Assembly (NCBI GenBank): GCA_963664395.2
Contig: OY761159.2
Span: 3,872,001 to 3,936,000 of the forward strand
Length of the DNA stretch: 64,000 nt
Origin: Candidatus Binatia bacterium
GTDB lineage: Bacteria; Desulfobacterota; Binatia; Bin18
Direction: 5' to 3'
The notes beneath the pieces were generated by a model, which was not told the DNA's origin, ran no database searches, and was given only the letters and a program-made list of their open reading frames with translations. Position 1 is the first letter of the stretch; each line of letters starts with the position of its first letter. Positions 10,162 to 28,309 of the stretch are shown here, one piece after another. The position numbers and the translations under genes were made by a program.

Positions 10162-10236
10162 GGGTCAGTAGCTCGAATTGGATAGAGCACCGGACTCCAA
10201 ATCCGGGGGTTGCAGGTTCGAGTCCTGCCTGACCCG
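10162..10236 (+). tRNA. tRNA-Trp(CCA)
   Basis: GGGTCAG/CTGACCC acceptor, G73, CCGGA-CT-CCA-AA-TCCGG; 3' CCA not encoded. Confidence 0.96.
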
Positions 10237-10285
10237 TCTCTTTTGAGTAGGTGCGCTTCCTCTGGTGAGAGGAGATAGTTAGGAT

Positions 10286-10480
10286 ATGGGTGTGTTTGAG
10301 ACAGCACGGGCATATTGTCAAGAAGCGTGGGTAGAGACCAAGAAGGTCCATTGGCCGAGCCGCAAAGAGGTTCGCTCTGCGACGCTGGTTGTTCTCCTCC
10401 TTGTTGCAATCGTTGCGCTTTTCTTGTTCTCAGTAGACGCCGTACTGTCGTGGCTGTTTCGCTCGTTCCTTGGAAATTAA
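10286..10480 (+). CDS. secE: Preprotein translocase subunit SecE
   Basis: E.KKVHWPSRKE motif plus one TM helix, before nusG. Confidence 0.95.
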   Translation: MGVFETARAYCQEAWVETKKVHWPSRKEVRSATLVVLLLVAIVALFLFSVDAVLSWLFRSFLGN

Positions 10481-10506
10481 CTAGCGATATAAAGGGGCCT
10501 GAGGTT

Positions 10507-11046
10507 ATGGGCAAGCAATGGTATATCGTCCATACCTATTCTGGGTACGAACGCAAGGCGAAAGCCGCTTTAGAGGAACGTATTCGGACTCTGGGGAAGC
10601 AGGAAGCGTTCGGGGACGTTCTGGTACCAGAGGAGCAAGTTGTTGAGCTGGTAAAAGGAAGAAAGCGCACGTCGGCTCGGAAATTTTTCCCAGGGTACAT
10701 CCTCGTCCAGATGGAGATGAATGATGAGACTTGGCATGTTGTCAGGTCAACGCCGAAAGTGACTGGTTTTGTTGGCGGAGCAAATGACCCTCAGACCATT
10801 CCGTCAGTGTCGGAAGCTGAGGTTTCCGAAATTCATCAGCAAGTTGAAGAAGGAACCTTACGGCCTAAGCCAAAAATTTTATTTGAAACAGGAGAAGGCA
10901 TTAAGGTTGTGGATGGCCCCTTTCGGGATTTTACTGGTGTTGTTGAGGAAGTGAAGCCGGATAAAGGGAAGTTGCGCGTTTTGATCAGTATATTTGGTCG
11001 TGCAACTCCGGTTGAGCTTGATCTTGTCCAGGTTGAAAAAGCATAA
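10507..11046 (+). CDS. nusG: Transcription factor NusG
   Basis: WYIVHTYSGYE, FFPGY, TPKVTGFVG, KOW, IFGRATPVEL; ATG 10507 after GAGG. Confidence 0.98.
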   Translation: MGKQWYIVHTYSGYERKAKAALEERIRTLGKQEAFGDVLVPEEQVVELVKGRKRTSARKFFPGYILVQMEMNDETWHVVRSTPKVTGFVGGANDPQTIPSVSEAEVSEIHQQVEEGTLRPKPKILFETGEGIKVVDGPFRDFTGVVEEVKPDKGKLRVLISIFGRATPVELDLVQVEKA

Positions 11047-11062
11047 GTGGCGGTGAGAAACG

Positions 11063-11488
11063 ATGGCAAAGAAAATAGACACAACGATTAAACTTCAGAT
11101 CCCGGCCGGACAGGCGAATCCCAGTCCTCCCGTTGGTCCTGCCCTTGGGCAAAGGGGGGTCAATATCATGGAGTTCTGTAAAGCGTTCAATGCGAAAACT
11201 CAGGACCAACAAGGGTTGCTGACACCGGTTGTCATCACAGTCTACGCAGACCGGTCATTCTCCTTCATTACAAAGACGCCGCCGGCTTCTACGCTCCTGA
11301 AAAAGGCTGCCGGACTGGAAAAAGCCTCCAGTGAACCGGCGCGGCAGATGAAGGGCTCCGTTACTCGAAAACAGCTTGAAGAGATCGCAAAGACGAAGAT
11401 GCCGGATCTGAATGCGCAAGACCTCGAGGGCGCAATACGCATTGTTGCAGGGACGGCGCGCAGTATGGGACTTGAGGTGGTGAATTAA
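11063..11488 (+). CDS. rplK: 50S ribosomal protein L11
   Basis: [30 protein letters not shown]. Confidence 0.98.
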
Positions 11489-11489
11489 T

Positions 11490-12188
11490 ATGGCTCGACA
11501 AAGTAAAAGCTATCGTTCTGCAGAGGAGAAGGTTGACCGGACCCATCGTTATCCTTTAGAGGAAGCTCTTGCCCTCGCAAGCGAGACGAAACGCGCCAAG
11601 TTTGATGAGAGTGTCGAACTCGCGGTCCGGCTCGGCGTTGACCCGAGGAAGGCCGATCAGAACATCCGTGGGACGGTTTTGCTTCCTCACGGAACCGGTA
11701 AATCAATATGTGTTGCCGTTTTCGCAAAAGGGGAGAAGGCTCAAGAGGCAAAGGAGGCGGGTGCTGATATTGTCGGCGGTGAAGAACTCGCAAAGCGGAT
11801 TAGCGATGAAGGATGGCTTGAGTTCGATAAGGCTGTTGCCACTCCAGACATGATGGGAGTTGTTGGGCGACTAGGAAAAATTCTCGGACCGCGAGGCATG
11901 ATGCCAAACCCAAAGGTTGGTACTGTGACGGTAGATATTGCCCAGGCGGTTCAAGACCTTAAAGGGGGGAAGGTCGAATATCGAGTTGACAAAGCTGGAA
12001 ATGTTCACGTTCCTATTGGTAAAGCGTCATTTGAAAAGGCGCAGCTCGTTGACAATGCTCAGTCTCTTCTTGAGAGCTTAGTGCGTGCGAAACCTGCCTC
12101 AGCAAAAGGCACATATCTAAAGAGTATTACTGTGAGTACCAGCATGGGACCAGGAGTCCGAGTCGACCCTGCCGGACCCTTCGGCTAA
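11490..12188 (+). CDS. rplA: 50S ribosomal protein L1
   Basis: [36 protein letters not shown]. Confidence 0.98.
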
Positions 12189-12236
12189 GGCGAGGAAAAG
12201 CGACGCCATTCCTCTAGGTGAGACGAAAGATAAACG

Positions 12237-12758
12237 ATGGACCGACAAACAAAGGAAGAAACGGTTACTGATCTGCAGAATCGATTTGCTAGTGCGACTG
12301 CAGCAGTGGTGACTGAATGTAAAGGTTTAACAGTCGAAGATCTCAACAGCCTGCGGCGCGAGCTGCGCGAAGTGTCTGGAGAATATCGCGTTGCAAAGAA
12401 TACTCTCGTAGCGCTCGCTATTGATGGGACTCCGTACCTGTCCTTGAAAGAGCTCCTTTCTGGTCAGAATGGATTTGTCCTTGGATATGGTGATATCGTT
12501 GGGCTCACAAAGGTTGTTTCTCGCTATGCCTCTAAAAACGAGAAGTTTACTATTAAGGGTGGGGTCACAGAAGGGCAATTCCTTGAGACTGCAGGCATAG
12601 AGGAGTTAGCGACACTTCCAAGTCATGAGGCGCTCCAAGCGCAATTGTTAGGGATGCTCTCTCAACCTGCGACCCGTCTTGTTGGGGTGTTGTCTGCCCC
12701 TGGGGGCCAGCTCGCTCGATTACTGAATGAACGCATGTCCCAACTTAATTTAGACTAA
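12237..12758 (+). CDS. rplJ: 50S ribosomal protein L10
   Basis: GLTV..LRRELR..VAKNTL, LATLPS; position between rplA and rplL. Confidence 0.95.
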   Translation: MDRQTKEETVTDLQNRFASATAAVVTECKGLTVEDLNSLRRELREVSGEYRVAKNTLVALAIDGTPYLSLKELLSGQNGFVLGYGDIVGLTKVVSRYASKNEKFTIKGGVTEGQFLETAGIEELATLPSHEALQAQLLGMLSQPATRLVGVLSAPGGQLARLLNERMSQLNLD

Positions 12759-12788
12759 GTGGAAGTTACTTTCCTGAAGGAGGAATGT

Positions 12789-13181
12789 ATGGCTCTGACA
12801 GAAGAGAGGATAGATGAACTCATTACCACGCTTTCTGATCTCACGATTCTTGAAGCTTCCGATTTAGTAAAGAAGCTCGAAGAGAAATGGGGAGTCAGCG
12901 CGTCTGCCCCTGTTGTTGTTGTTGGGGGAGGACCTGGGGGTGATGCTGAACCTGCTGCGGCAGAGGAGAAGACCGACTTTGACGTTATCCTGACCGGTCC
13001 GGGCGAGAAAAAGATTCAGGTCATCAAGGTTGTCCGTGAATTGACAGGGCTCGGGCTCAAAGAAGCCAAGGGACTGGTGGACGGTGCGCCAAAGGCAGTG
13101 AAAGAGGGGGCGTCCAAGGAGGAAGCCGAAGAAATCAAAAACAAGCTGGAAGCGGCCGGGGGCTCAGTCGAGTTGCAGTAG
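12789..13181 (+). CDS. rplL: 50S ribosomal protein L7/L12
   Basis: [37 protein letters not shown]; ATG 12789 after AAGGAGG. Confidence 0.97.
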
Positions 13182-13212
13182 AAACGGAGCGTTAGGGAGA
13201 GGGAGAGCATTT

Positions 13213-16200
13213 ATGGCTGATATGGCTGGAAATCTAGCGCATAACTTCCGTATTCGACGGTCCTTTGGTCATATCGAAAAAATCATCGAATTCCCACATC
13301 TGCTGGAAATTCAACGTCATTCATATGACGAATTTCTCCAGCGGCTGCTCACCGCTGACCGGAGGACCGATGCCGGACTCCAAGGGGTTTTTCGGTCTGT
13401 TTTTCCGATTAAGGACTTCAACGAGACGGCGTCACTTGAGTTTGTGAATTATACACTTGGAGAGCCAAAATACTCAGTCGAAGAGTGTCACCAAAGAGGG
13501 ATGACGTATGCTGCCCCTCTCAAAGTCACAATTCAGCTTGTTTTATGGGATGTTGATTCGAGTAGCGGCGCTCGAACGATCAAAAACGTAAAAGAGCAGG
13601 AAGTCTACTTTGGCGAGGTCCCTTTAATGACCACTCATGGCACATTCATGATCAACGGGACTGAGCGTGTTATTGTGAGTCAGCTCCACCGGTCCCCTGG
13701 GGTCTTTTTTGATCATGATAAGGGAAAAACGCACGCGAGTGGGAAATTACTCTACTCTGCGCGCGTCATTCCATACCGTGGGTCTTGGATCGATTTTGAG
13801 TTTGACCCAAAAGACATTCTGTATGTCCGGATTGACCGCCGCCGCAAGTTTCACGCAACCGTACTCTTACGGGCGTTGGGTATGTCAACCGAGGATTTGC
13901 TGAATTATTTCTACCGAAGGGATACTATCTTTCTCAGTAGAAAGGGTGGACAAACGCCAGCAAAGGCTTTTCTGCCCGACCATCTCCTCGGTATGCGGGC
14001 AACGCAGGACGTTCGCAACCCTGAAACAGGTGACTTGTTAGTGAAGGAAGGACGGAAGTTCACCCGCGGGGCGCTGAGACAGTTAGAGGCGGCTGGTCTT
14101 GAGCGTATACCCATCACCGCAGAGGAAATTATTGGTCGTGTGGCTGCACGCGATATTATCGATCCCTCGACACAAGAAGTACTCGTACAATGTAATGAGG
14201 AGATTTCGCAGGAACAAGTTGATCTTCTCATTGAGCGTGGCGTGCACCAGTTTGAAGTCTTGTTCATTGACGATGCGCATACAGGCTCTTCGCTTCGCAA
14301 TACACTCCTCCAAGACAAGGTCACTTCTTCAGCCGAAGCGATGATTGAGGTCTATCGACGTCTGCGCCCTGGCGATCCACCGACCAGCGAGGCTTCCACG
14401 TCGTTTTTTCACAACCTGTTCTTCAATCCCGAGCGGTATAATCTCTCCCGAGTGGGGCGTCTGAAGCTCAACCATAAGCTTGGGATAACGGCTCCTCTGG
14501 ACCAGGGTACCTTGCGCGGTGAAGATATCTTAGAGACCGTTCGCTACGTAGTCGAACTCAAAAATGGCAATGGCGTCGTTGATGATATTGACCACTTAGG
14601 AAATCGTCGTGTCCGTGCGGTCGGCGAGCTCGTCGAAAACCAGTTTCGTATTGGCTTAGTACGGATGGAGCGGGCGGTGAAAGAGCGGATGAGTCTCCAG
14701 GATGTTGAGACGTTAATGCCGCAAGAATTGGTCAATTATAAGCCGGTTTCAGCAGCTCTCAAGGAATTTTTCGGGTCGAGCCAGCTCTCCCAGTTCATGG
14801 ACCAAACGAATCCGTTGTCGGAGGTAACGCACAAGCGGCGGCTTTCCGCGCTAGGGCCTGGCGGGCTGACGCGGGAACGTGCTGGCTTTGAGGTGCGTGA
14901 CGTTCACCCTACTCACTATGGCCGCGTCTGTCCTATCGAAACACCGGAAGGGCCAAATATTGGGCTGATTTCAAGTCTTTCAACATATGCTCGTGTCAAT
15001 GAGTTTGGGTTCATTGAGACGCCCTATCGGACAGTGGAAAGTGGACGAGTCACTGAGAAGGTCCACTATTTATCTGCCTTAGAGGAAGAGAGTCAGACAA
15101 TCGCGCAGGCGAACGCGCCGGTCGATGCAACAGGCAATTTTGTCAACCCATTGGTCTCTGCCCGACTTGGTGGGGAGTTTGTGATGGTGCAACCTGACCA
15201 AGTCCAGCTCATGGATATATCTCCCACTCAGCTGGTCAGTGTTGCCGCCGCCCTGATCCCTTTCCTGGAACATGATGATGCCAACCGGGCACTGATGGGG
15301 TCTAATATGCAGCGGCAGGCTGTACCCTTGCTGCGGACGGAAGCCCCGCTTGTTGGAACTGGAATGGAGCAGATTGTGGCCCGAGATTCCGGGGCTACCC
15401 TTATCGCTCAGCGTGACGGAATTGTTGAGAGTGTGGATTCCACTCGGGTGGTGATTAAAGCCGAATCGCATACCACACCGGGAGACGTTGGTGTTGACAT
15501 GTATAGTCTCACGAAATACCAACGCTCTAACCAAAATACGTGTATTAACCAACGGCCTATTGTTCAGATTGGTGATCGGGTAGAGGAGGGCGATGTCATT
15601 GCTGATGGCCCAGCTACAGAAATGGGAGAACTCGCGCTAGGGAGAAACGTCCTGGTCGCGTTTATGATCTGGGGGGGCTATAACTTCGAGGATTCTATCC
15701 TGGTGAGTGAGCGACTGATTCGCGACGATGTTTTTACATCGGTCCATATTGAAGAGTTTGAATGTGTCGCTCGGGACACAAAACTCGGCCCAGAGGAAAT
15801 CACCCAAGACATTCCGAATGTTGGAGAAGAAGCACTCAAGGATCTTGACGAGAGTGGCATTGTCAGAATCGGCGCCGAAGTGAGGCCGGGCGATATTCTC
15901 GTTGGCAAAATAACGCCCAAGGGAGAGACTCAACTTTCTCCAGAAGAGAAACTGCTCCGAGCAATTTTTGGTGAAAAAGCCGGAGAGGTTCGTGATACCT
16001 CGCTCCGTGTTCCCCCTGGGGTCGAAGGCGCGGTGATTGATGTCCGCGTGTTCTCACGTAAAGGCGTCACCAAGGACGAGCGTAGCCAGTATCTCGAAGA
16101 GGCCGAGATTCAGCGGCTCCAACAAGATCGGGATGAAGAGATCCGCATTATCCAAGACAGTACGCGCGGAAAGATCAAGCAATTGTTGGTCGGAAAGACG

Positions 16201-17343
16201 GCAACGATGCGGGTCAGTGACGATGATTCTCGACGCGTAGTCATAGCGAAAGGGCAGGAGATTACAGAAGAGCTGCTGGACACACTGTCAGCTCAGTTGT
16301 GGAGCAGGGTCCGAGTGGAAGACGAGGCGGTAGAGGAGGAGATACGAAAGACGACGGATTCTCTCGCCGACCGTGTCGGCTCTATCCGCGGAGAATGCGA
16401 AAGAAAAATCGAGAGACTCAAGAGTGGAGACGAGTTGCCCCCTGGGATTATCAAGATGGTGAAGGTCTTTGTCGCCATAAAACGCCGCCTCCAAGTTGGT
16501 GACAAGATGGCTGGGCGACACGGGAACAAGGGGGTCCTGTCTCGGATTCTACCAGAAGAGGACATGCCGTATCTTGAGGATGGCACTCCGGTCGATGTTG
16601 TCCTCAACCCTCTGGGGGTGCCCTCTCGTATGAATGTTGGGCAAATTCTGGAAACCCATCTGGGTTGGGCGATGCAGTCCCTTGGCCGGCAGATCGGGAA
16701 CGATGCAGAGGAAGATGGAAAAGCTGCTGCCGACAGTCTCCGTGCGCGGCTCAAGGACCTCGCTCGTTCAACCGATGTTTCTCGACTTATTGATGGACTC
16801 TCGGGGGCCGAGGTCAAAGAGCTGGCCGGTCGATCGAAGCACGGCTCTCACGTTGCGACTCCGGTCTTTGATGGTGCCCCGGAGGCGGAGATTTTCTCTT
16901 TGCTTGCGCAGGCAGGCCTTCCCGATACCGGGCAGACGACGCTCTACGATGGGCGAACAGGAGAACCTTTCAGCCAGCCAGTGACCGTCGGTGTAATGTA
17001 TATCTTAAAACTGCACCACCTTGTTGAAGATAAGATTCACGCACGATCAACTGGACCCTACTCCCTTGTGACGCAACAGCCTCTTGGTGGAAAAGCGCAA
17101 TTTGGGGGACAACGGCTTGGAGAAATGGAAGTGTGGGCACTTGAAGCCTATGGTGCCGCGTACAGCTTGCAAGAGATGCTCACGGTAAAATCGGACGATG
17201 TTGCCGGTCGAACTCGTATGTATGAAGCGATTGTAAAGGGAGAAAATATCCTGGAACCTGGATTGCCTGAGTCGTTCAATGTGATGATCCGCGAGCTCCA
17301 GAGTCTGGCGCTCAATGTCGAACTGATTGAAGAAACTGAATAA
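13213..17343 (+). CDS. rpoB: RNA polymerase beta subunit
   Basis: [58 protein letters not shown]. Confidence 0.99.
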
Positions 17344-17360
17344 GGTGAGGTGAGGACAAA

Positions 17361-20300
17361 ATGGAAGATTTTCTGGGTCTTTTTGAAAAACCCCAAAATC
17401 CGCTCCGTTTTAATGCGATCCAGGTCTCGTTGGCATCTGCTGATATGGTCCGCTCTTGGTCCCATGGTGAGGTCAAGAAGCCTGAAACCATAAATTACCG
17501 AACTTTTAAGCCTGAGCGCGACGGGCTTTTTTGTGCGAAAATATTCGGGCCAACCAAAGACTATGAATGCAATTGTGGCAAATACAAACGTATGCGCCAT
17601 AGAGGCGTCGTCTGCGAGAAGTGCGGGGTTGAGGTCATTCAGTCGAAAGTCCGTCGTGAACGAATGGGCCATATTGACCTTGCCAGTCCAGTGGCACACA
17701 TTTGGTTTTTGAAGAGCCTCCCCAGCCGGATTGGGACACTCATGGATATGCCGCTCAAAGAGCTTGAGCGTGTTCTATACTTCGAGTCCTATATCGTTCT
17801 CGATCCGGGTGAAACCCCGCTCAAGAAAAAAGAACTATTGAGTGAGGTCCGTTATCGGCAAGCGGTTGAGGAGTTTGGTCCGGGTAGCTTCCGAGCAGGA
17901 ATGGGTGCAGAAGCGGCCCGTGAGTTATTGCAAGACTTTGATCTGGAGCAGCTGGCGCGGGAGCTCCAGGTTGAAATGGTTGACACATCGAGCGAAGCCC
18001 GGCGGAAGAAAGCTGCGAAACGCTTGAAGGTCGTCAATGCCTTTCGTCACTCCAGCAACCATCCGGAAGAGATGATTCTGGAAGTCATTCCTGTCATTCC
18101 GCCCGACCTACGTCCCCTCGTCCCGCTCGATGGGGGACGCTTTGCGACTTCTGATCTGAATGACCTGTATCGTCGGGTTATTAATCGGAATAACCGTCTC
18201 AAACGACTCATAGAGCTGAGCGCTCCGGATATTATTATCCGCAATGAGAAGCGCATGCTTCAGGAAGCAGTTGATGCCCTCTTTGATAACGGTCGCCGTG
18301 GCCGACCACTCACCGGTCCCAATAAACGTCCACTCAAATCCTTGTCTGACATGTTGAAAGGAAAAGGGGGGCGTTTTCGTCAAAATCTTCTTGGGAAGCG
18401 AGTAGATTATTCAGGTCGTTCAGTCATTGTTGTTGGGCCGGAATTGCGTCTCCATCAATGTGGTTTGCCGAAATATATGGCTTTGGAATTGTTCAAACCC
18501 TTCATTTACAACAAGCTTGAGGAGCGCGGTTACACAACGACGATCAAGAGTGCCAAAAAGATGGTCGAAAGTGAACGGCCAGAAGTCTGGGATATCCTAG
18601 ATGAAGTGATTCGCGAGCACCCAGTCCTCCTGAACCGAGCTCCGACACTGCACCGGCTCGGCATCCAAGCCTTTGAACCAATCCTTATTGACGGAAAGGC
18701 AATTCAACTGCACCCCCTCGTCTGCATGGCCTATAACGCCGACTTTGACGGCGACCAAATGGCCGTGCATATCCCGCTGTCAGTTGAGGCACAGGTTGAA
18801 GCGCGCAGCTTGATGATGTCGACCAATAATATTCTTTCTCCTGCGAATGGCCGGGCGGTGATTGCCCCAACTCAGGATATGGTTCTGGGGTTGTATTCCA
18901 TGACGCGGCACCGCGCCGGAGCCTTAGGGGAAGGGAAAACGTTTGGTCATCCAGAAGAAGTTCGTATAGCCTACGATCAAGGCGCGGTCGATTTGCAGGC
19001 AAAGGTCATTGTGCGCCTGGATGGTGAACGGGTCGAAACGACAGTTGGCCGTATCTTGCTGGCTGAAATTGCACCGCCTGAGATTCCCTTTTCAGATATG
19101 AACCGGGTGATGAAGAAAAAAGAGCTCGGTGCCTTGATTGATGCGGCCTTTTTGAAAGCGGGAAACAAGGCCACCGTGATTTTCGCGGACCGTTTGAAAG
19201 ATCTTGGATTCGAGTATGCCACTCGGGCTGGAATATCAATTGGAATCAAGGACATGGTGATTCCGAAAGAAAAAGGCCCTCTCTTGGACAAAGCCCAAAA
19301 GGCCCTGCAGGAGATTCAAGACCAATATACAAAAGGTCTGATTACGGATGGTGAGCGTCATAATAAGGTTATTGATACCTGGGCATCAGTCACCGATGAC
19401 GCGGCCAATGAGATGTTCAGAGGACTCCAAGAGGACAGAGCCGGGTTTAGCCCTATCTATATGATGGCGGACTCTGGATCGCGTGGGAGTGCTCAGCAAA
19501 TTCGCCAGCTGGCGGGTATGCGCGGATTAATGGCAAAGCCATCGGGGGAAATCATCGAAACGCCGATCACTGCCAACTTCCGTGAAGGACTCTCCGTGCT
19601 TCAGTACTTCATCTCAACACACGGGGCGCGGAAAGGTTTAGCTGATACCGCACTCAAGACGGCTAATTCTGGCTATCTGACCCGACGGCTTGTTGATGTG
19701 GCTCAGGACTCAATCGTGAGCGAAGAAGACTGTGGCACGATTGATGGCATCGAGATGACCCCTTTGGTTGAGGGTGGGGAAATAATAGAAGGCCTTGGCG
19801 AGCGTGTCCTGGGACGTGTTGCCCTCGACGATATTCGTGATCCTTTTACCCAAGAAGTTATTGTTCGCGCAAACGAAGAAATTGACGAAGACCGTGTCAC
19901 GCGCATCGAAGAAGCCGGGATTGAGCGTGTATGGATACGGTCTGCTCTGACCTGTACGACCAGGCGAGGCATATGTGGGCGGTGCTATGGTCGGGATCTT
20001 GCCCGTGGACGGATAGTGCACTTGGGAGAGGCCGTTGGCATTATTGCTGCGCAGTCAATTGGTGAGCCAGGCACCCAACTGACAATGCGGACGTTCCACA
20101 TCGGTGGGACGGCGAGTCGACGAGCCGAGCAAACGACCCTGACGGTTCGCAACGAAGGGGTCCTTCACTATAACAACCTTAAGACCGTGGTTGACCGGGA
20201 TGGTGATTTGGTCGTGATGAACCGGAACGGGGAGGTTGCTGTTGCTGAGATCCTAGAGCCGGGACGGGAGCGTGAAAGAGAACGCTATCCCATCGTCTAT

Positions 20301-21458
20301 GGTGCAAAGCTGAAAAGGAAAGATGGCGCAAAGGTGAAAACCAATGACTTAATCGCGGAATGGGATCCCTATACGTTCCCGATTCTGACCGAGGTCAGCG
20401 GTGAGGTAAAATTCGGTGATATCGACGACAGGACCATGCAGGAAAAAGTGGATGAGCGGACGGGTTTATCCACGCGCGTCATTATTGAATTCCGAGACCC
20501 GAATATGCGTCCACGGGTGTCAATCAAAGATGAGAGTGGCAAGACGGCCAAGCTGTCGAACGGGTTGGATGCCCGCTATCTCCTCCCTGTTGGTGCCAAT
20601 ATTAATGTGCGCGCGGGTCAACGCGTCGAAGCAGGGGATGTGCTCGCAAAGATCCCACGAGAAACCACAAAAACAAAGGATATCACTGGTGGATTGCCTC
20701 GGGTTGCCGAGCTCTTTGAGGCACGCAAGCCGAAAGGGTTCGCCGTTATCAGTGAGATTGAAGGGGCCGTCTCTTTTGGTAAGGATACAAAAGGGAAAAG
20801 GAAGGTATTGATTACTCCTGAGGTTGGCGAAGCGCGGGAGTATCTCATTCCTCGGGGAAAACACATCAGCGTGCGAGAAGGCGATTATGTTCGGCCAGGA
20901 GAGCCGCTGATGGCCGGCTCCTCAAATCCCCATGATATCCTTGGCGTTCTCGGAGAACGCGAGCTCGCAAAGTCTCTCGTGGACGCGATCCAAGAAATAT
21001 ATCGTCTCCAGGGGGTGCGCATCCATGATAAGCATATCGAAGTGATTGTGAGACAAATGATGCGGCGCGTTCTCGTGACCGAAGTCGGAGATTCTCATTT
21101 CTTAATTGGCGAGCAAGTAGAGAAGTGGCGTTTCCAAGAAGAGACTGAACGTGTGCTGTCTGATGGAGGGACTCCACCAGAAGCGAAATCGCTCTTGATG
21201 GGAATTACAAAGGCGAGTCTCTCAACGGATAGTTTTATCTCAGCCGCTTCGTTCCAAGAAACGACAAAGGTGCTGACGGAAGCGGCCATTAACGGCAAAG
21301 TAGATCACCTGCTGGGACTTAAAGAAAATGTCATTATGGGCCGGCTCATTCCTGCTGGGACAGGAACTCCGAGTTACACGCAGCTGACTGCCGGGAGCCC
21401 AGAGGCTGTGCCTGAGGAAGAAGAGCCTTTGCCAATTTCCCAAGTGCTCGAAGCATAG
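17361..21458 (+). CDS. rpoC: RNA polymerase beta' subunit
   Basis: KPETINYRT, zinc finger, catalytic NADFDGD, trigger loop with a large proteobacterial-type insertion. Confidence 0.99.
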
Positions 21459-21491
21459 GGAACGGAAGGCCGAGTGTCGTAAGGAGGATGA

Positions 21492-21863
21492 ATGCCTACA
21501 GTTCAGCAACTGGTACGAAAAGGAAGAGAACAACAACGCAGAAAAGTGACCGCTCCGGCTTTGCAAGCCTGCCCCCAACGGCGAGGAGTGTGTACTCGAG
21601 TTTATACGACGACTCCGAAAAAGCCGAATTCAGCCTTGAGAAAGGTCGCCCGTGTTCGACTGACCAACGGTATTGAGGTGACAGCTTATATCCCAGGAAT
21701 AGGGCATAATCTGCAGGAACATTCGGTTGTGCTCATCCGTGGCGGTCGAGTCAAGGACTTACCTGGCGTCCGGTATCATATTATACGTGGCACTCTTGAC
21801 TCTATCGGTGTTCAGGAGCGAAGGCAGGGACGGTCAAAATACGGCGCAAAGAAGCCAAAGTAA
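21492..21863 (+). CDS. rpsL: 30S ribosomal protein S12
   Basis: [24 protein letters not shown]. Confidence 0.99.
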
Positions 21864-21878
21864 GCGAGAGGGAGCAGC

Positions 21879-22349
21879 ATGCCACGTAAAGGACCTGCCG
21901 CACGACGCGAGATCACACCAGATCCGAAGTACCACGACGTGAGTGTCTCAAAATTCGTCAATATGATGATGCTCGATGGAGAAAAGGGAAAGGTCGAGAA
22001 GATCATATACGGAGCAATGGACCTGATCCAGCAAAGAACCGGGGAGGGGGCGCTTGAGGTTTTTAAGCGCGCATTGGAAAATATAAAACCCCTTGTTGAG
22101 GTTCGGTCACGCCGAGTTGGTGGCGCGACGTACCAGGTGCCGATTGAAGTACGCCAAGTTCGGCGGAATTCTCTGGCTATGCGCTGGCTTGTCCAATCTT
22201 CCAGGCAGCGGTCGGAAAAGAGTATGGAAGAGAGGCTGGCTGGTGAACTCTTTGAAGCGTCTCAGAATCGAGGCGGTGCTGTGAAGAAACGTGAAGATAC
22301 GCATCGCATGGCGGAGGCGAATAAAGCATTTGCCCATTATCGCTGGTAA
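21879..22349 (+). CDS. rpsG: 30S ribosomal protein S7
   Basis: [26 protein letters not shown]. Confidence 0.99.
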
Positions 22350-22415
22350 TAAAGATATGTATGTACTCAGCTGCTTTTTTTATATTTTGATCAAATATGA
22401 ACGCCACTGGTGACC

Positions 22416-22580
22416 ATGAGGAAAGAGCAGAAGGGGAACGGTCCTGGACATCTATTGATGCAGGCGGTTGACTCTTCTGAAATAGCATTTAGAATTGCGA
22501 ACTCCAGAATAAAGCGGTATGCCAGATAGTTGGCTTCTGCTTCGAGGACGAGCCCCAACGATGAAGTGGTCGTACGGCCC
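22416..22580 (+). pseudogene. fusA: Eroded relic of elongation factor G (domain IV/V junction)
   Basis: At the exact fusA position, frame 22416-22529 reads MRKEQKGNGPGHLLMQAVDSSEIAFRIANSRIKRYAR (EF-G consensus ..GP.AGYP..HxVDSSEMAFKIA); frameshifted E-P / M-K / V-V-V-R-P follows at 22550-22580 (consensus LEPIMKVEVxTP). Confidence 0.8.
22468..22495 (+). promoter_or_regulatory. Putative sigma70 promoter for tuf-S10 operon inside the fusA relic
   Basis: TTGACT (22468-73), 16 bp spacer, TAGAAT (22490-95); both hexamers match 5/6 of consensus. Confidence 0.65.
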
Positions 22581-22613
22581 CTCTCTATTCATACGTAGAC
22601 ATTTTTATCGCGA

Positions 22614-23818
22614 GGCGAGGGAAGGGAGAGAGCGATGGCGAAGGAGCGGTTTAAGCGGACGAAGCCGCACATGAATGTGGGGACGATCGGGCATATTGAC
22701 CATGGGAAGACGACGTTAACGGCGGCGATCACGAGCGTGTTGGCGGAGCAGTCGATGGCGGTGGCGGTGGCGTTTGACGAGATTGACAAAGCGCCGGAGG
22801 AGAAGGAGCGCGGGATCACGATCAACACGGCGCACGTGGAATACGAGACCGAGCAGCGGCACTATGCGCACGTGGATTGTCCGGGGCATGCGGACTATAT
22901 CAAGAACATGATCACAGGGGCGGCGCAGATGGACGGGGCGATACTAGTGGTTGCGGCTTCGGATGGGCCGATGCCGCAGACGCGGGAGCACATTTTATTA
23001 GCGCGTCAAGTGGGGGTTCCGGCGATTGTCGTGTTCATGAACAAGGTAGACATGGTGGATGATGAGGAGCTACTGGATTTAGTGGACTTGGAGATGCGGG
23101 AACTGCTGTCGAAGTATGATTTTCCGGGCGATGAGACCCCGATCATTCGGGGGAGTGCGCTGCGGGCCTTAGAGGGGGAAGCGGAGGGGAAGGCGCAAGT
23201 GCTGGAGTTGATGGCGGCGGTAGACAGTTTTATTCCCGAGCCGGCGCGGGAAGTGGACCAAGAGTTTTTAATGTCCGTGGAGGACGTGTTTACGATTTCG
23301 GGGCGGGGGACGGTGGCGACGGGGCGCGTGGAGCGGGGGCGGGTCAAAGTGGGGGAAGAGGTAGAGATTGTGGGGATTCGGGAGACGCAGAAGACGACGG
23401 TGACCGGGGTAGAGATGTTCCGCAAGCTGTTAGATGAGGGCGTGGCGGGGGACAACGTGGGCTGTTTACTGCGGGGGATCAAGCGGGAAGAGATTGAGCG
23501 GGGGCAGGTTTTGGCGAAGCCGGGGAGTATCACGCCGCATACGAAGTATGAAGCCGAAGTGTATGTGTTGACGAAAGATGAGGGGGGGCGGCACACGCCG
23601 TTTTTCAATGGATATCGGCCGCAGTTTTACTTTCGGACGACGGATGTGACGGGGGCGGTGACGTTGCAAGCCGGCACGGAGATGGTGATGCCGGGGGACA
23701 ACACGCAGATGACGGTGGGGTTGTTGACGCCGATTGCCATGGATGAGGGGTTACGGTTTGCGATTCGAGAGGGAGGACGCACGGTGGGCGCGGGCGTCGT
23801 TACCAAAATCTTGGAGTA
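22614..23818 (+). repeat. Direct repeat copy 2 (21-nt 5' leader + tuf), offset 13836 bp from copy 1
   Basis: Matches 8778-9982 with no difference seen. Confidence 0.93.
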
Positions 23819-23819
23819 G
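22635..23819 (+). CDS. tuf: Elongation factor Tu (tufA position)
   Basis: Protein identical to 8799-9983. Confidence 0.99.
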
Positions 23820-23837
23820 AGTCCTATGACCAGCATA

Positions 23838-24146
23838 ATGAATGAAAAAATCCGCATCCGCCTGAAAGCATACGACCACCGGGTACTTGATCAATCGGTC
23901 AAAGAGATTGTCGAAACAGTCAAGCGGACCGGGGGGCGGGTCGCTGGTCCTATTCCACTTCCGACACGGATTGAACGGTTTACGGTGAACCGTTCACCTC
24001 ATGTTGACAAGAAGTCCCGGGAACAGTTCGAGATACGGACCCACAAGCGTTTGCTCGATATTCTTGACCCAACCCAGCAAACAATTGACGCGCTTGGAAA
24101 ACTGGAATTAGCTGCTGGAGTCGATGTTGAGATCAAGCTGGGGTAG
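23838..24146 (+). CDS. rpsJ: 30S ribosomal protein S10
   Basis: [32 protein letters not shown]; start ATG 23838 or 23826. Confidence 0.98.
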
Positions 24147-24157
24147 TGAGGGAGCAG

Positions 24158-24784
24158 ATGATGCAAGGGTTAATAGGAAAGAAGCTTGGTATGACTCAGG
24201 TTTTTTCCGCTGATGGAGATCTTGTCCCGGTTACCGTAGTACAGACTGGTCCATGTACAGTTGTGCAAAAGAAGACTCAGCAAACAGATGGCTATACTGC
24301 TCTCCAGCTGGGGTTTGGGAATCAAAAACCACAACGTGTTTCTCGGCCTGTCTTAGGACATAGTCAGAAATCTGGCGCAGGCCCATTCGCCGTCCTCCGC
24401 GAGTTCCGGGTAGATAACGTTGATGGCTACGAGGTCGGCGGTGAAATCACGGTTGGGCAAGTCTTCCAGTTTGGGGACCGGGTCAACGTTGTCGGTCGGA
24501 CGAAAGGTCGAGGCTTTGCCGGAGTGGTGAAACGACATGGGATGAGTGGGTTTCCCAAGAGCCATGGAACGCATGAGTACTTTCGTCATGGTGGGGCTAT
24601 TGGAAACCGCTCGTATCCCGGAAAAGTTTTTAAAGGTAAGAGAATGGCAGGCCATTACGGGAATGATCGGATGAAGGCGTTGAACCTGCAAGTGGTTGAT
24701 GTCCAGCCGGACGAAAACCTCCTCTTCCTGCGTGGGTCTATACCGGGGGCGAGAGGACAGGTTGTCCTCATTCACAAGCCATAG
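24158..24784 (+). CDS. rplC: 50S ribosomal protein L3
   Basis: [32 protein letters not shown]. Confidence 0.97.
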
Positions 24785-24797
24785 GTAAGGATAATCA

Positions 24798-25439
24798 ATG
24801 GCAGATCAAGAAAGGTCTATGGACGTTCTCTCTGCTCAACGAGAGAAGGTCGGAGAGATTCCTCTTCCCGCTGTGATCGCTGAGCAGCCGCAGCGGGAGC
24901 ATTTATTGTTCGAAACGGTTAGAATGCAGTTGGCAAATCGTCGTGCTGGGACGGCGGCTACAAAGACGCGGGCGCAGGTGCGTGGCGGAGGAAGAAAACC
25001 TTGGCGACAAAAAGGAACAGGGCGGGCGCGGGCGGGAAGTAACCGGTCTCCAATATGGGTCGGTGGAGCAACGGTATTTGGTCCTCAGCCGCGCTCTTAT
25101 GCGTACCGTATGCCGCGCTCAGCTCGGAAGACCGCTCTGCGAGCAGCACTCGCGCAGAAGCTGCGCCAAGACGAGATGGTTGTCATCGATGCGATTCAGT
25201 TTGATGAGCCAAAAACGAAGCAGATGATCGCCCTTTTGGCTCAGCTTGAGATGGGAAACAGTGTCTTGATTATCCTGGCGGACGCAGATGCCAACGTGCA
25301 GAAATCTGCACGCAATTTGTCCGGGGTAAAAGTTCTCTTGAGCCAAGGACTTAATGTGTATGATCTGCTCCGGTACCGGAAGGTGTTAGTGACACAGGCT
25401 GCTATGCAACGGATAAGTGAGAGGCTCGGGGGGCAGTGA
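24798..25439 (+). CDS. rplD: 50S ribosomal protein L4
   Basis: GGGRKPWRQKGTGRARAGS, FGPQPR. Confidence 0.98.
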   Translation: MADQERSMDVLSAQREKVGEIPLPAVIAEQPQREHLLFETVRMQLANRRAGTAATKTRAQVRGGGRKPWRQKGTGRARAGSNRSPIWVGGATVFGPQPRSYAYRMPRSARKTALRAALAQKLRQDEMVVIDAIQFDEPKTKQMIALLAQLEMGNSVLIILADADANVQKSARNLSGVKVLLSQGLNVYDLLRYRKVLVTQAAMQRISERLGGQ

Positions 25440-25726
25440 TGGATGCCTATTCTGTCCTTGTGGCACCGTTGATCACCGAGAAATCAACATTGGCAAGTGA
25501 GGTAGGGAATCAGGTGGTTTTTCGGGTACATCCGCAGACCAACAAGGCAAGTATTAAAAACGCAGTTGAAGCGCTTTTTGATGTAAAGGTGAAACAGGTC
25601 CGGACCATTCAATATATCGGAAAGCGACGGCGTGTCGGTCGGTCTCAAGGGAGAAAGGCAGCCTGGAAGAAAGCTTATGTCACCCTACGTGATGGCGATC
25701 GTATAGACTTTTTTGAAGGGGCGTAA
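25439..25726 (+). CDS. rplW: 50S ribosomal protein L23
   Basis: PLITEKS, IKNAVEALFDVKV, WKKAYVTL. Confidence 0.97.
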   Translation: MDAYSVLVAPLITEKSTLASEVGNQVVFRVHPQTNKASIKNAVEALFDVKVKQVRTIQYIGKRRRVGRSQGRKAAWKKAYVTLRDGDRIDFFEGA

Positions 25727-25729
25727 CTC

Positions 25730-26557
25730 GTGGCTATCCGACAGTACAAACCAACGTCTGCTGGTAGACGCCTCCAGAGTGTTTCCGGCTTTAGTGATAT
25801 TACGAAGACAAAAAAGGGGCCGGAGCGGTCTTTGTTGGCGCCGCTCCATAAGCATGGTGGGCGGAATAACAGAGGACGGCTCACTACCCTTCACCGGGGG
25901 GGCGGGCATAAACGGCGGTACCGTTTGGTTGACTTCCGCCGCGACAAGGATGGCATTGAGGCGAAGGTTGCTGCTATAGAGTATGATCCAAACCGCTCTG
26001 CACGCATTGCCCTACTCCATTATGGCGACGGGGAGAAGCGCTACATCCTTGCCCCTGTCGGTCTTGCTGTGGGTAATGTTGTGATGTCAGGAGAATCAGC
26101 AGACATTCGCCCTGGTAATTGTTTACCGTTGCGGCGTATTCCGGTTGGTACGATCATCCACAATATCGAGCTGAAGATAGGCAAAGGGGCTCAGATTGTC
26201 AGGAGTGCCGGGACTTCTGCGCAACTCATGGCTAAAGAAGGTGTGTACGCAACAGTGAAGCTCCCTTCGGGAGAAGTGCGGATGGTGCATCAAAACTGTA
26301 AAGCCACCATCGGTCAGGTTGGCAACCTTGACCATGAGAACATCTCGTATGGGAAGGCTGGCCGTAGTCGGTGGTTCGGCCGCCGGCCGCGCGTGCGAGG
26401 AATCGCTATGAATCCGGTGGACCACCCACTTGGGGGAGGCGAAGGAAGAAGTAAGGGCAATCATCCCATGAGTCCGTGGGGTGTACTAGCCAAGGGGTAT
26501 AAGACCAGGCGACACTCAAGGTCAGACAAGTATATTGTACAAAAGAGAAAGAAATAA
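25730..26557 (+). CDS. rplB: 50S ribosomal protein L2
   Basis: [33 protein letters not shown]. Confidence 0.99.
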
Positions 26558-26558
26558 C

Positions 26559-26843
26559 ATGCCCCGCTCAGTCAAAAAAGGTCCATTCATTGATGACCAT
26601 TTATTGAAGAAGGTCGATACCGCTGTGCAGAGCGGTGATAAAAAAGTGATTAAAACGTGGTCGCGCCGTTCAATGATTATCCCTGACATGATTGGATTGA
26701 CATTCGCCGTGCACAATGGAAGAAAGTTCATCCCCGTCTATGTGACTGAAAATATGGTTGGCCATAAACTCGGTGAATTTTCTCCAACCCGGACATTCTA
26801 TGGCCATGCAGGGGATAAGAAGGGCGAAGTAAGAAGGAAGTAA
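26559..26843 (+). CDS. rpsS: 30S ribosomal protein S19
   Basis: [25 protein letters not shown]; ATG 26559. Confidence 0.98.
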
Positions 26844-26856
26844 GGGGGGATATGTA

Positions 26857-27189
26857 ATGGAGGTTCGCTCAATTACTCGTCAGGTGCGGATAGCGCCGCG
26901 GAAGGCCCGTTTAGTGGCGGACCTCATCCGTGGAAAGCAGGTCGAAGCCGCGCTTATGGCCCTGCGCTTTTCTCAAAAGAAGGCGGCGCGCATTTTTACA
27001 AAAACTCTGCAATCTGCTATTGCAAATGCAACAGATACGCAGAATGTTGATCCCGACACGTTGTATGTGAAGCAGGCCACCGTAAACGGGGGAGCGACCC
27101 TCCGGCGCTTTACCCCCCGTGCGCATGGACGGGCCACTCCGATCCGAAAGCGGACGAGCCACTTTACCGTTGTCGTAGACGAGCAATAA
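26857..27189 (+). CDS. rplV: 50S ribosomal protein L22
   Basis: [30 protein letters not shown]. Confidence 0.98.
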
Positions 27190-27205
27190 ACGAAAGAAGA
27201 ACAGA

Positions 27206-27868
27206 ATGGGTCAAAAAGTACACCCGAAAGGGTTTCGAGTCGGGATTCTCGAAGGGTGGGAGTCTCGCTGGTATGCAGAAAAAGAGTACGCCACGCTACT
27301 GCATGATGATATCCGTATCCGGGAGTTCATTAAGAAGCGTCTCTATCATGCTGGCATTGCAAAAATTGAAGTGGAGCGGGCCGCCAACAAAGCCAAGATT
27401 AATATTTATACAGCTCGCCCCGGCATTGTGATTGGAAAAAAAGGGGTAGAGATAGAAAAGTTGAAAGTCGAGCTTGCCAAGCAGACCGATGGGGAAGTCT
27501 ATTTGAATATTCACGAAGTACGGCGTCCCGACCTGGACGCACAACTCGTCTCTGAAAATGTAGCACTGCAACTCGAACGGCGAATCGCCTTTCGGCGTGC
27601 TATGAAAGAGTGCGTTGCGCGGGCTACTCGTATGGGAGCACAAGGGGTGAAGGTGCGTTGTTCGGGTCGGCTTGGTGGGGCTGAGATCGCCCGCACCGAG
27701 TGGTACCGAGAAGGGCGAGTTCCGCTCCATACGTTGCGTGCCGATATTAGCTATGGTGTGGCAGAAGCCCGAACCACGTATGGCGTTATTGGTGTGAAGG
27801 TGTGGATCTTCCGAGGTGAGGTCCTCACTAAAGAGGAAGAGCAACAACGCTCAACCGTAAGTGCGTAA
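27206..27868 (+). CDS. rpsC: 30S ribosomal protein S3
   Basis: [37 protein letters not shown]. Confidence 0.99.
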
Positions 27869-27880
27869 GGGACGTCAGGT

Positions 27881-28309
27881 ATGCTCTCTCCGAGGAAAAC
27901 GAAATTCCGAAAACAGCAGCGCAGGCGCATATATGGCAACGCCCAACGTGGTGCTACCCTCTCGTTTGGTGACTATGGCCTGCAAACGCTTGAACGTGGA
28001 TGGGTGACTGCACGACAAATAGAGGCGGCCCGGATTGCCTTGACCCGTCACGTACGACGGGGTGGTCGTATTTGGATACGCATCTTCCCTGATAAGCCAG
28101 TGACCAAAAAGCCGGCAGAAACGCGAATGGGGAAGGGCAAGGCGGCGCCTGAGTTTTGGGTCGCCGTTGTCAAGCCGGGACGGATGCTCTTCGAAATCGA
28201 AGGAGTTCCGCGCGAGACTGCCCGGGAGGCTCTGCGGCTTGCTGCAAACAAACTGCCCGTCAGCACGCAGATACGAGAGCGGCCAGGAGCGACATATGCG
28301 GGCGAGTGA
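27881..28309 (+). CDS. rplP: 50S ribosomal protein L16
   Basis: [28 protein letters not shown]. Confidence 0.98.

Follow-up and report, generated by a model that had tools for sequence, protein, structure and literature searches.

Why does the str operon of a Candidatus Binatia genome pass directly from rpsG to tuf, and what remains of the fusA gene expected between them? The order rpsL-rpsG-fusA-tuf is among the most conserved gene orders in bacteria, and comparison with relatives indicates that it was broken here at the root of a whole family. In the window, by which we mean the entire 64,000-nt stretch of DNA analysed, fusA is absent between rpsG and tuf, so the canonical order is not present. 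The initial annotation had placed only 285 bp between these two genes, and both its coordinates and its letters are correct (Table 1). The window's rpsG is 73–96% identical to its counterparts in relatives. Downstream, tuf and rpsJ are spaced by 6 bp, followed by the remaining S10-spc-alpha genes. In our own ORF map, the rpsG–tuf gap is the largest non-coding stretch within positions 10155–28309, and from nusG to rplP it is the sole non-coding stretch of any size.

Table 1. Features of the rpsG–tuf region, in window coordinates.
Feature	Position	Strand	Basis
rpoC	17361-21458	+	ORF map
rpsL	21492-21863	+	ORF map
rpsG (ribosomal protein S7), 156 aa, intact	21879-22349	+	ORF list
rpsG–tuf gap, 285 bp; site of the ~2.1-kb fusA in relatives outside the family	22350-22634	+	ORFs, synteny
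ORF across the relic, 39 codons from GTG (37 from ATG at 22416); judged spurious	22410-22529	+	ORF list
EF-G domain IV relic, 11 codons, VDSSEIAFRIA	22467-22499	+	Profile match, outgroup alignment
-35-like hexamer, TTGACT	22468-22473	+	Promoter scan
Spacer, 16 nt	22474-22489	+	40-gap comparison
-10-like hexamer, TAGAAT (TACAAT or TAGTAT elsewhere in the family)	22490-22495	+	Promoter scan
Predicted 5' leader of tuf; start near 22500-22503 inferred	22500-22634	+	Consensus fold, comparison
tuf (EF-Tu), second copy	22635-23819	+	ORF list

The missing gene is a feature of the family rather than of one genome. The family sample comprises 40 rpsG–tuf gaps from nine genera; a tenth genus, represented by a single genome that is 80% complete, gave no rpsG match and was left out. 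Within the window's genus, rpsG is followed directly by tuf in 20/20 readable gaps, the window's included, with 202–314 bp between the genes (one further same-genus locus stopped before tuf and is not among the 20 counted). The eight other genera show the same arrangement in 20/20 loci, two of them on contigs that end just inside tuf, with gaps of 155–319 bp. Among outgroup loci of the same order or class with enough downstream sequence, rpsG is followed by fusA in 8/8, and six outgroup loci that were extended read rpsG-fusA-tuf on the same strand, each continuing into an ORF that resembles the window's rplC. Since all 40 family gaps lack fusA whereas all eight outgroup loci keep rpsG-fusA, gene order dates the loss to the root of the Candidatus Binatia family, and the proposal that fusA is gone from the str operon stands.

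That the contig lost an intact fusA through an assembly error has a negligible probability, and nothing was found in favour of it. Contigs assembled from RNA libraries (runs X1 and X2 of one study) bridge positions 21492–22643 and so make rpsL, rpsG, the gap, and tuf contiguous, and contigs from a second study cover 22264–22583. Such contigs show presence and contiguity, and carry nothing on RNA ends or levels. The same junction recurs in 40/40 family gaps, many of them from single-contig genomes, and the only two EF-G domain IV matches in the whole genome both lie outside the window. A misassembly, which the initial annotation had listed as something to check, is thus effectively ruled out.

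These two matches correspond to two EF-G genes. They flank the window at distances of about 208 kb (upstream) and about 727 kb (downstream). One is canonical in type and the other divergent, in agreement with the earlier expectation of extra EF-G genes outside the str operon. The canonical-type gene scores 1001.7 bits against TIGR00484 (cut-off 659.4) and sits between an acyl-CoA-dehydrogenase-like gene and a tRNA-Leu(UAA) gene, with translation genes absent nearby. The divergent paralogue has an altered P-loop region, and its best match is NF009381, at 856.7 bits. A match to the canonical-type gene at E <= 1e-50 is present in 53 of the 54 other family genomes, most of which carry both types. 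Canonical-type proteins are 73–94% identical to the copy in the window's genome (84–94% within the genus and 73–78% in other genera), and divergent-type proteins share 36–46% identity with that same canonical copy.

The origin of the canonical-type gene can be read in two ways. Outgroup genomes carry a str-operon fusA together with the divergent paralogue, and the latter is orthologous across the class. In phylogenetic trees, the canonical-type EF-G of the family forms a long stem (0.51–0.66 changes per site) arising from a backbone that the tree leaves unresolved. Neither a single clade of the canonical-type EF-G with all Binatia str-type EF-Gs (p-AU 0.157) nor a sister relationship to the str EF-G of the closest outgroup (p-AU 0.070) is rejected. 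One genome per species was scanned for a handful of exact peptide words, an approach that may overlook relatives; outside the family, no closer relative of the canonical type was found, the best reaching 57%. The gene may therefore be a copied or moved fusA, after which the str copy decayed, or it may be a foreign or paralogous replacement of fusA.

Several further features of the EF-G genes were recorded. The tRNA-Leu(UAA) gene (L002 2247-2333, G000:C1) follows the stop codon of the canonical-type gene by about 90 nt. The gene's further neighbours, each named only by the beginning of its sequence, are a mutS-like ORF, the acyl-CoA-dehydrogenase-like ORF, and a third that we take for an oxidoreductase. 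Two relatives (G065:C300 and G067:C513) have an in-frame TAG inside the canonical-type EF-G match, probably through assembly errors in fragmented genomes. One outgroup genome encodes a third EF-G (L044, G033:C10:44800-49600) that, in our tree, groups with EF-Gs from records labelled Deltaproteobacteria, Desulfobacteraceae, Planctomycetota, and Phycisphaerae, and with neither Binatia type.

Within the gap itself, the initial annotation read 11 codons, VDSSEIAFRIA, as a remnant of EF-G domain IV, and this reading holds. Frame 1 of the gap translates as ...KEQKGNGPGHLLMQAVDSSEIAFRIANSRIKRYAR* (also written ...GNGPGHLLMQAVDSSEIAFRIANSRIKRYAR*). An HMM profile built from six outgroup str-operon EF-G proteins, none of them from the window's genome, matches the six-frame translation of the gap with 9.1 bits at profile positions 575–600, which correspond to the domain IV motif. 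Of 2000 dinucleotide-preserving shuffles, the best reaches 5.3 bits, so that all fall short of this score. Because the two promoter-like hexamers that overlap the relic supply V-D and part of F-R-I on their own, a further control kept both hexamers fixed, and none of its 3000 shuffles attains 9.1 bits either (best 7.1). The proposed comparison with shuffled controls thus places the match above every control, and by this measure the resemblance of the 11 codons to EF-G goes beyond chance.

The relic is nearest in sequence to the str-type EF-G of the closest outgroup. It shares 10/11 residues with the str-operon protein of that family (VDSSEIAFKIA), compared with 8/11 for each of the two EF-G genes in the window's genome. 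Against the DNA of the closest outgroup, identity is 11/11, 10/11, and 2/11 at the first, second, and third codon positions, a pattern expected if the divergence occurred while the sequence was still coding. The 5.04-Mb genome contains 21 sites within four mismatches of the first 18 nt of the relic, among them the relic itself and the VDSS sites of both EF-G genes; within two mismatches, the relic is the only site in the whole genome. It occupies the same place, between rpsG and tuf, and the same strand as fusA in the outgroups.

The promoter could be real and its likeness to EF-G a coincidence, a strong promoter that happens to read VDSSEIAFRIA. That reading draws on the residues that the hexamers give for free, on the size of the match (11 codons only, singled out after the fact by the initial annotation for its EF-G look), and on the rest of the gap, which has no EF-G likeness once the relic is masked. 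It has to contend with the hexamer-fixed shuffles, with a match that is correct in profile position, strand, and place at once, with the particular closeness to the str-type EF-G of the nearest outgroup, and with the absence of this promoter sequence at unrelated loci in the genome. We consider coincidence to be quite improbable and the relic to be, in all likelihood, genuine.

Once the relic's 36 nt are masked, no EF-G signal is left in any of the 40 family gaps (best 0.4 bits, with positions out of order), and an ungapped DNA comparison of the gap with eight EF-G genes finds identity only at the motif. The flanks are not conserved between genera, and no longer, intermediate fusA pseudogene occurs in the 40 family gaps. 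The initial annotation had also described frameshifted EF-G pieces on either side of the relic (GNGP-GH upstream; E-P, M-K, and V-V-V-R-P downstream); since masking leaves no EF-G signal, these are unsupported.

The TTGACT-N16-TAGAAT sequence that had been noted on the bases of the relic is recovered by a promoter scan, with 10/12 consensus positions matched and the -35-like hexamer beginning 167 nt before the tuf ATG. Across the family, the candidate promoter lies 141–221 nt before tuf, mostly 162–169 nt, and in several genera it begins just 14–19 nt past the rpsG stop codon. The 40 gaps conform to GTTGACTCTT...TA(G/C)(A/T)AT with a 16-nt spacer, the exception being one same-genus gap that reads GTTGACCTTT. 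A match of 10/12 is not rare in itself, as 232 sites in the genome score at least 10 (both strands, three spacings), and the exact type TTGAC[TA]-N16-TA[GCT]AAT has a single site in the genome.

Conservation within the gaps peaks at the two hexamers, as the initial annotation had suggested should be checked. Genus-weighted information is 1.99 bits per base in the -35, 1.82 in the -10, and 1.47 in the spacer, and drops to 0.39 over the preceding 25 nt and 0.49 over the following 42 nt. TTGAC and the 16-nt spacer length are each found in 40/40 family gaps, and the invariant bases are TTGAC followed by T1, A2, A5, and T6 of the -10. Outside the hexamers, conservation extends to part of the spacer and to the neighbours of TTGAC, a G that precedes it and a CTT that follows. 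The amino-acid reading varies over the same interval, AFR giving way to VRT, ATT, AST, HFR, or LFR, while TA.AAT is kept. Hexamer-peaked conservation, a drifting codon reading, and missing start codons together form the signature of a promoter and not of a coding sequence, so the constraint on the element, as judged from comparison of the 40 gaps, is of promoter type. We predict, with reasonable confidence, that the relic is a working promoter.

The same comparison bears on the ORF across the relic, for which the initial annotation had offered an EF-G-loop micropeptide as an alternative. In the window's genome, the frame is open for 37–39 codons from an ATG or GTG. Across the family, an ATG, GTG, or TTG precedes the relic in its frame in only 10/40 gaps, an ATG in 2/40, and a stop codon directly precedes AVDSS in most same-genus gaps. 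The residues moreover change between genera. This candidate is accordingly rejected, and we regard a micropeptide as extremely improbable.

A different function for a genuine relic deserves more weight. The 11 codons could have been kept as an operator for a regulator of tuf and the ribosomal protein genes, or as an RNA element in a transcript reading through from rpsG to tuf. In its favour, conservation reaches past the hexamers to the spacer and to the G and CTT next to TTGAC, and RNA-library contigs are found on both sides of the site. The invariant bases, however, are those needed by a sigma-70 promoter, at a spacing fixed in every gap; Rfam gives 0 matches up to E = 1 against positions 22300–22700; and hairpins with compensatory changes are found downstream of the site, not across it. 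An operator or RNA element in place of a promoter is therefore unlikely. A plain sigma-70 promoter would not call for such strong conservation of the spacer and of the G preceding TTGAC, so the site may have a second role beside that of a promoter, for instance in binding a regulator.

The hairpins in question belong to the predicted leader. Within the genus (L004-L023), two are kept, with pairs near 22514–22540 and a core stem near 22563–22585 enclosed by outer pairs, and compensatory changes occur in 7/17 pairs of the consensus fold. The tuf leaders of other family genera differ in sequence and are similar in length. Taken whole, the 5' leader of tuf folds no better than shuffles (z 0.07).

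A promoter at this position would drive tuf together with the ribosomal protein genes that follow, given that the gap is the largest non-coding stretch of the surrounding region. Part of the tuf mRNA may nevertheless originate elsewhere. RNA-library contigs include positions 22264–22467, upstream of the candidate promoter, and read-through from rpsG therefore probably exists. A terminator scan after rpsG called none. In the three genomes for which it was folded, the end of rpsG does not outperform its shuffled counterparts (z 0.22, 1.73, and 0.96).

The explanation that we favour, and hold to be fairly likely as a whole, combines a fusA relic with a promoter function. The str-operon fusA would have been lost by deletion in the common ancestor of the family, its function being supplied by, or having already passed to, a canonical EF-G gene at another chromosomal site. 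What survived of fusA would be about 33 nt that encode the domain IV motif VDSSEIAF(K/R)IA. At the DNA level this stretch reads TTGAC-N17-TA.AAT and may act as a sigma-70-type promoter, with RNA polymerase presumably starting near 22500–22503 and transcription feeding tuf and the tightly linked S10-spc-alpha genes. Promoter function would then be the reason why this piece survived.

Whether the promoter already existed in the intact gene is a separate matter. The str-type fusA genes of the Binatia outgroups match at 7/12 positions at the motif site, and in the closest outgroup, where fusA is intact, no promoter match of at least 9/12 occurs anywhere in the gene. Because that gene reaches only 7/12 at the site, the promoter need not predate the loss of fusA. 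In one E. coli fusA, the VDSSE.AFK codons spell TTGACT-N16-TAAACT, a 9/12 match located 430 nt before the tufA ATG, and this is the sole match of at least 9 in the last ~800 nt before tufA. Internal tufA promoters in E. coli fusA were reportedly described by An and Friesen and by Zengel and Lindahl in the 1980s–1990s, and may or may not lie at the motif site; a literature search for text on them found nothing usable. By analogy, the E. coli str operon (rpsL-rpsG-fusA-tufA) would resemble the Binatia locus in having a tuf promoter in fusA-derived sequence. It differs in that its fusA is whole and the site continues to encode protein, whereas in the Binatia family a promoter-sized piece alone remains.

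The motif codons amount to a latent promoter and spell a TTGAC-N17-TAAAAT-like sequence to varying degrees, with 7/12 in the Binatia str-type genes, 9/12 in E. coli, and 10/12 in the relic. One speculative reading is that the EF-G motif VDSSE.AFK.A, which is universally conserved, doubles as an internal tuf promoter and that this dual use is old and widespread, for which we see a rather low probability. If it were true, the Binatia family would represent a natural experiment in which the coding layer was deleted and the promoter layer kept throughout the existence of the family. Should the parallel with E. coli hold, it would also suggest a reason for DNA-level constraint on the motif stretch of fusA.

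The kinds of event involved have precedents. The str operon is the usual location of the canonical EFG I gene, with few exceptions, according to the available portion of Margus, Remm and Tenson 2011 (PMC3150367). The Binatia family resembles those exceptions, and the extra EF-G paralogues treated in the same text, in having a canonical gene outside the operon and a divergent paralogue; it differs in sharing the loss across a whole family, and a relic or reuse of the lost copy is not described in that portion of the paper. Pseudomonas aeruginosa, as presented in the available part of another report (PMC3832671), has its EF-G1A gene within the str operon and its EF-G1B gene at another location. 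Both lineages have two EF-G genes, one or more of them outside the str operon, and differ in that Pseudomonas keeps its str-operon copy, which the Binatia family has lost.

Neither a str operon that has lost fusA nor a promoter inside fusA sequence is a new kind of observation, and the present finding opens no major unsolved question. What appears unusual, from the comparisons made here, is that the sole surviving piece of a gene is promoter-sized, coincides exactly with promoter-like hexamers, and is kept family-wide. This offers a clean and datable example of coding sequence becoming regulatory sequence, in that 33 nt readable in the intact genes of relatives persist, in 40 genomes from nine genera, as a non-coding element under promoter-type constraint. 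The element also points to a probable transcription source for tuf and about 30 downstream ribosomal protein genes, and can serve as an annotation marker for the lineage.

Some minor observations concern the assemblies and the surroundings of the two tuf genes. Contig ends in the fragmented assemblies of relatives often fall just inside tuf, and in one relative (G070:C71:132145-132614), rpsG matches in three pieces in different frames, probably owing to an assembly error in a fragmented genome. The two tuf copies of the window (8799–9983 and 22635–23819) match at 1184/1185 nt, the one difference being the last base of the stop codon, and the last ~21 nt upstream of the ATG are common to both. 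This near-identity, together with the shared stretch before the start codon, points to ongoing gene conversion. A tRNA-Trp gene (10162–10236) lies between an ORF read as nusG and a 50-codon ORF that, from its position, we take to be rpmG. The first tuf copy is preceded by genes for tRNA-Thr, tRNA-Tyr, tRNA-Gly, and tRNA-Thr (8233–8699), the same tRNA order as at a tufB locus from E. coli that was compared.
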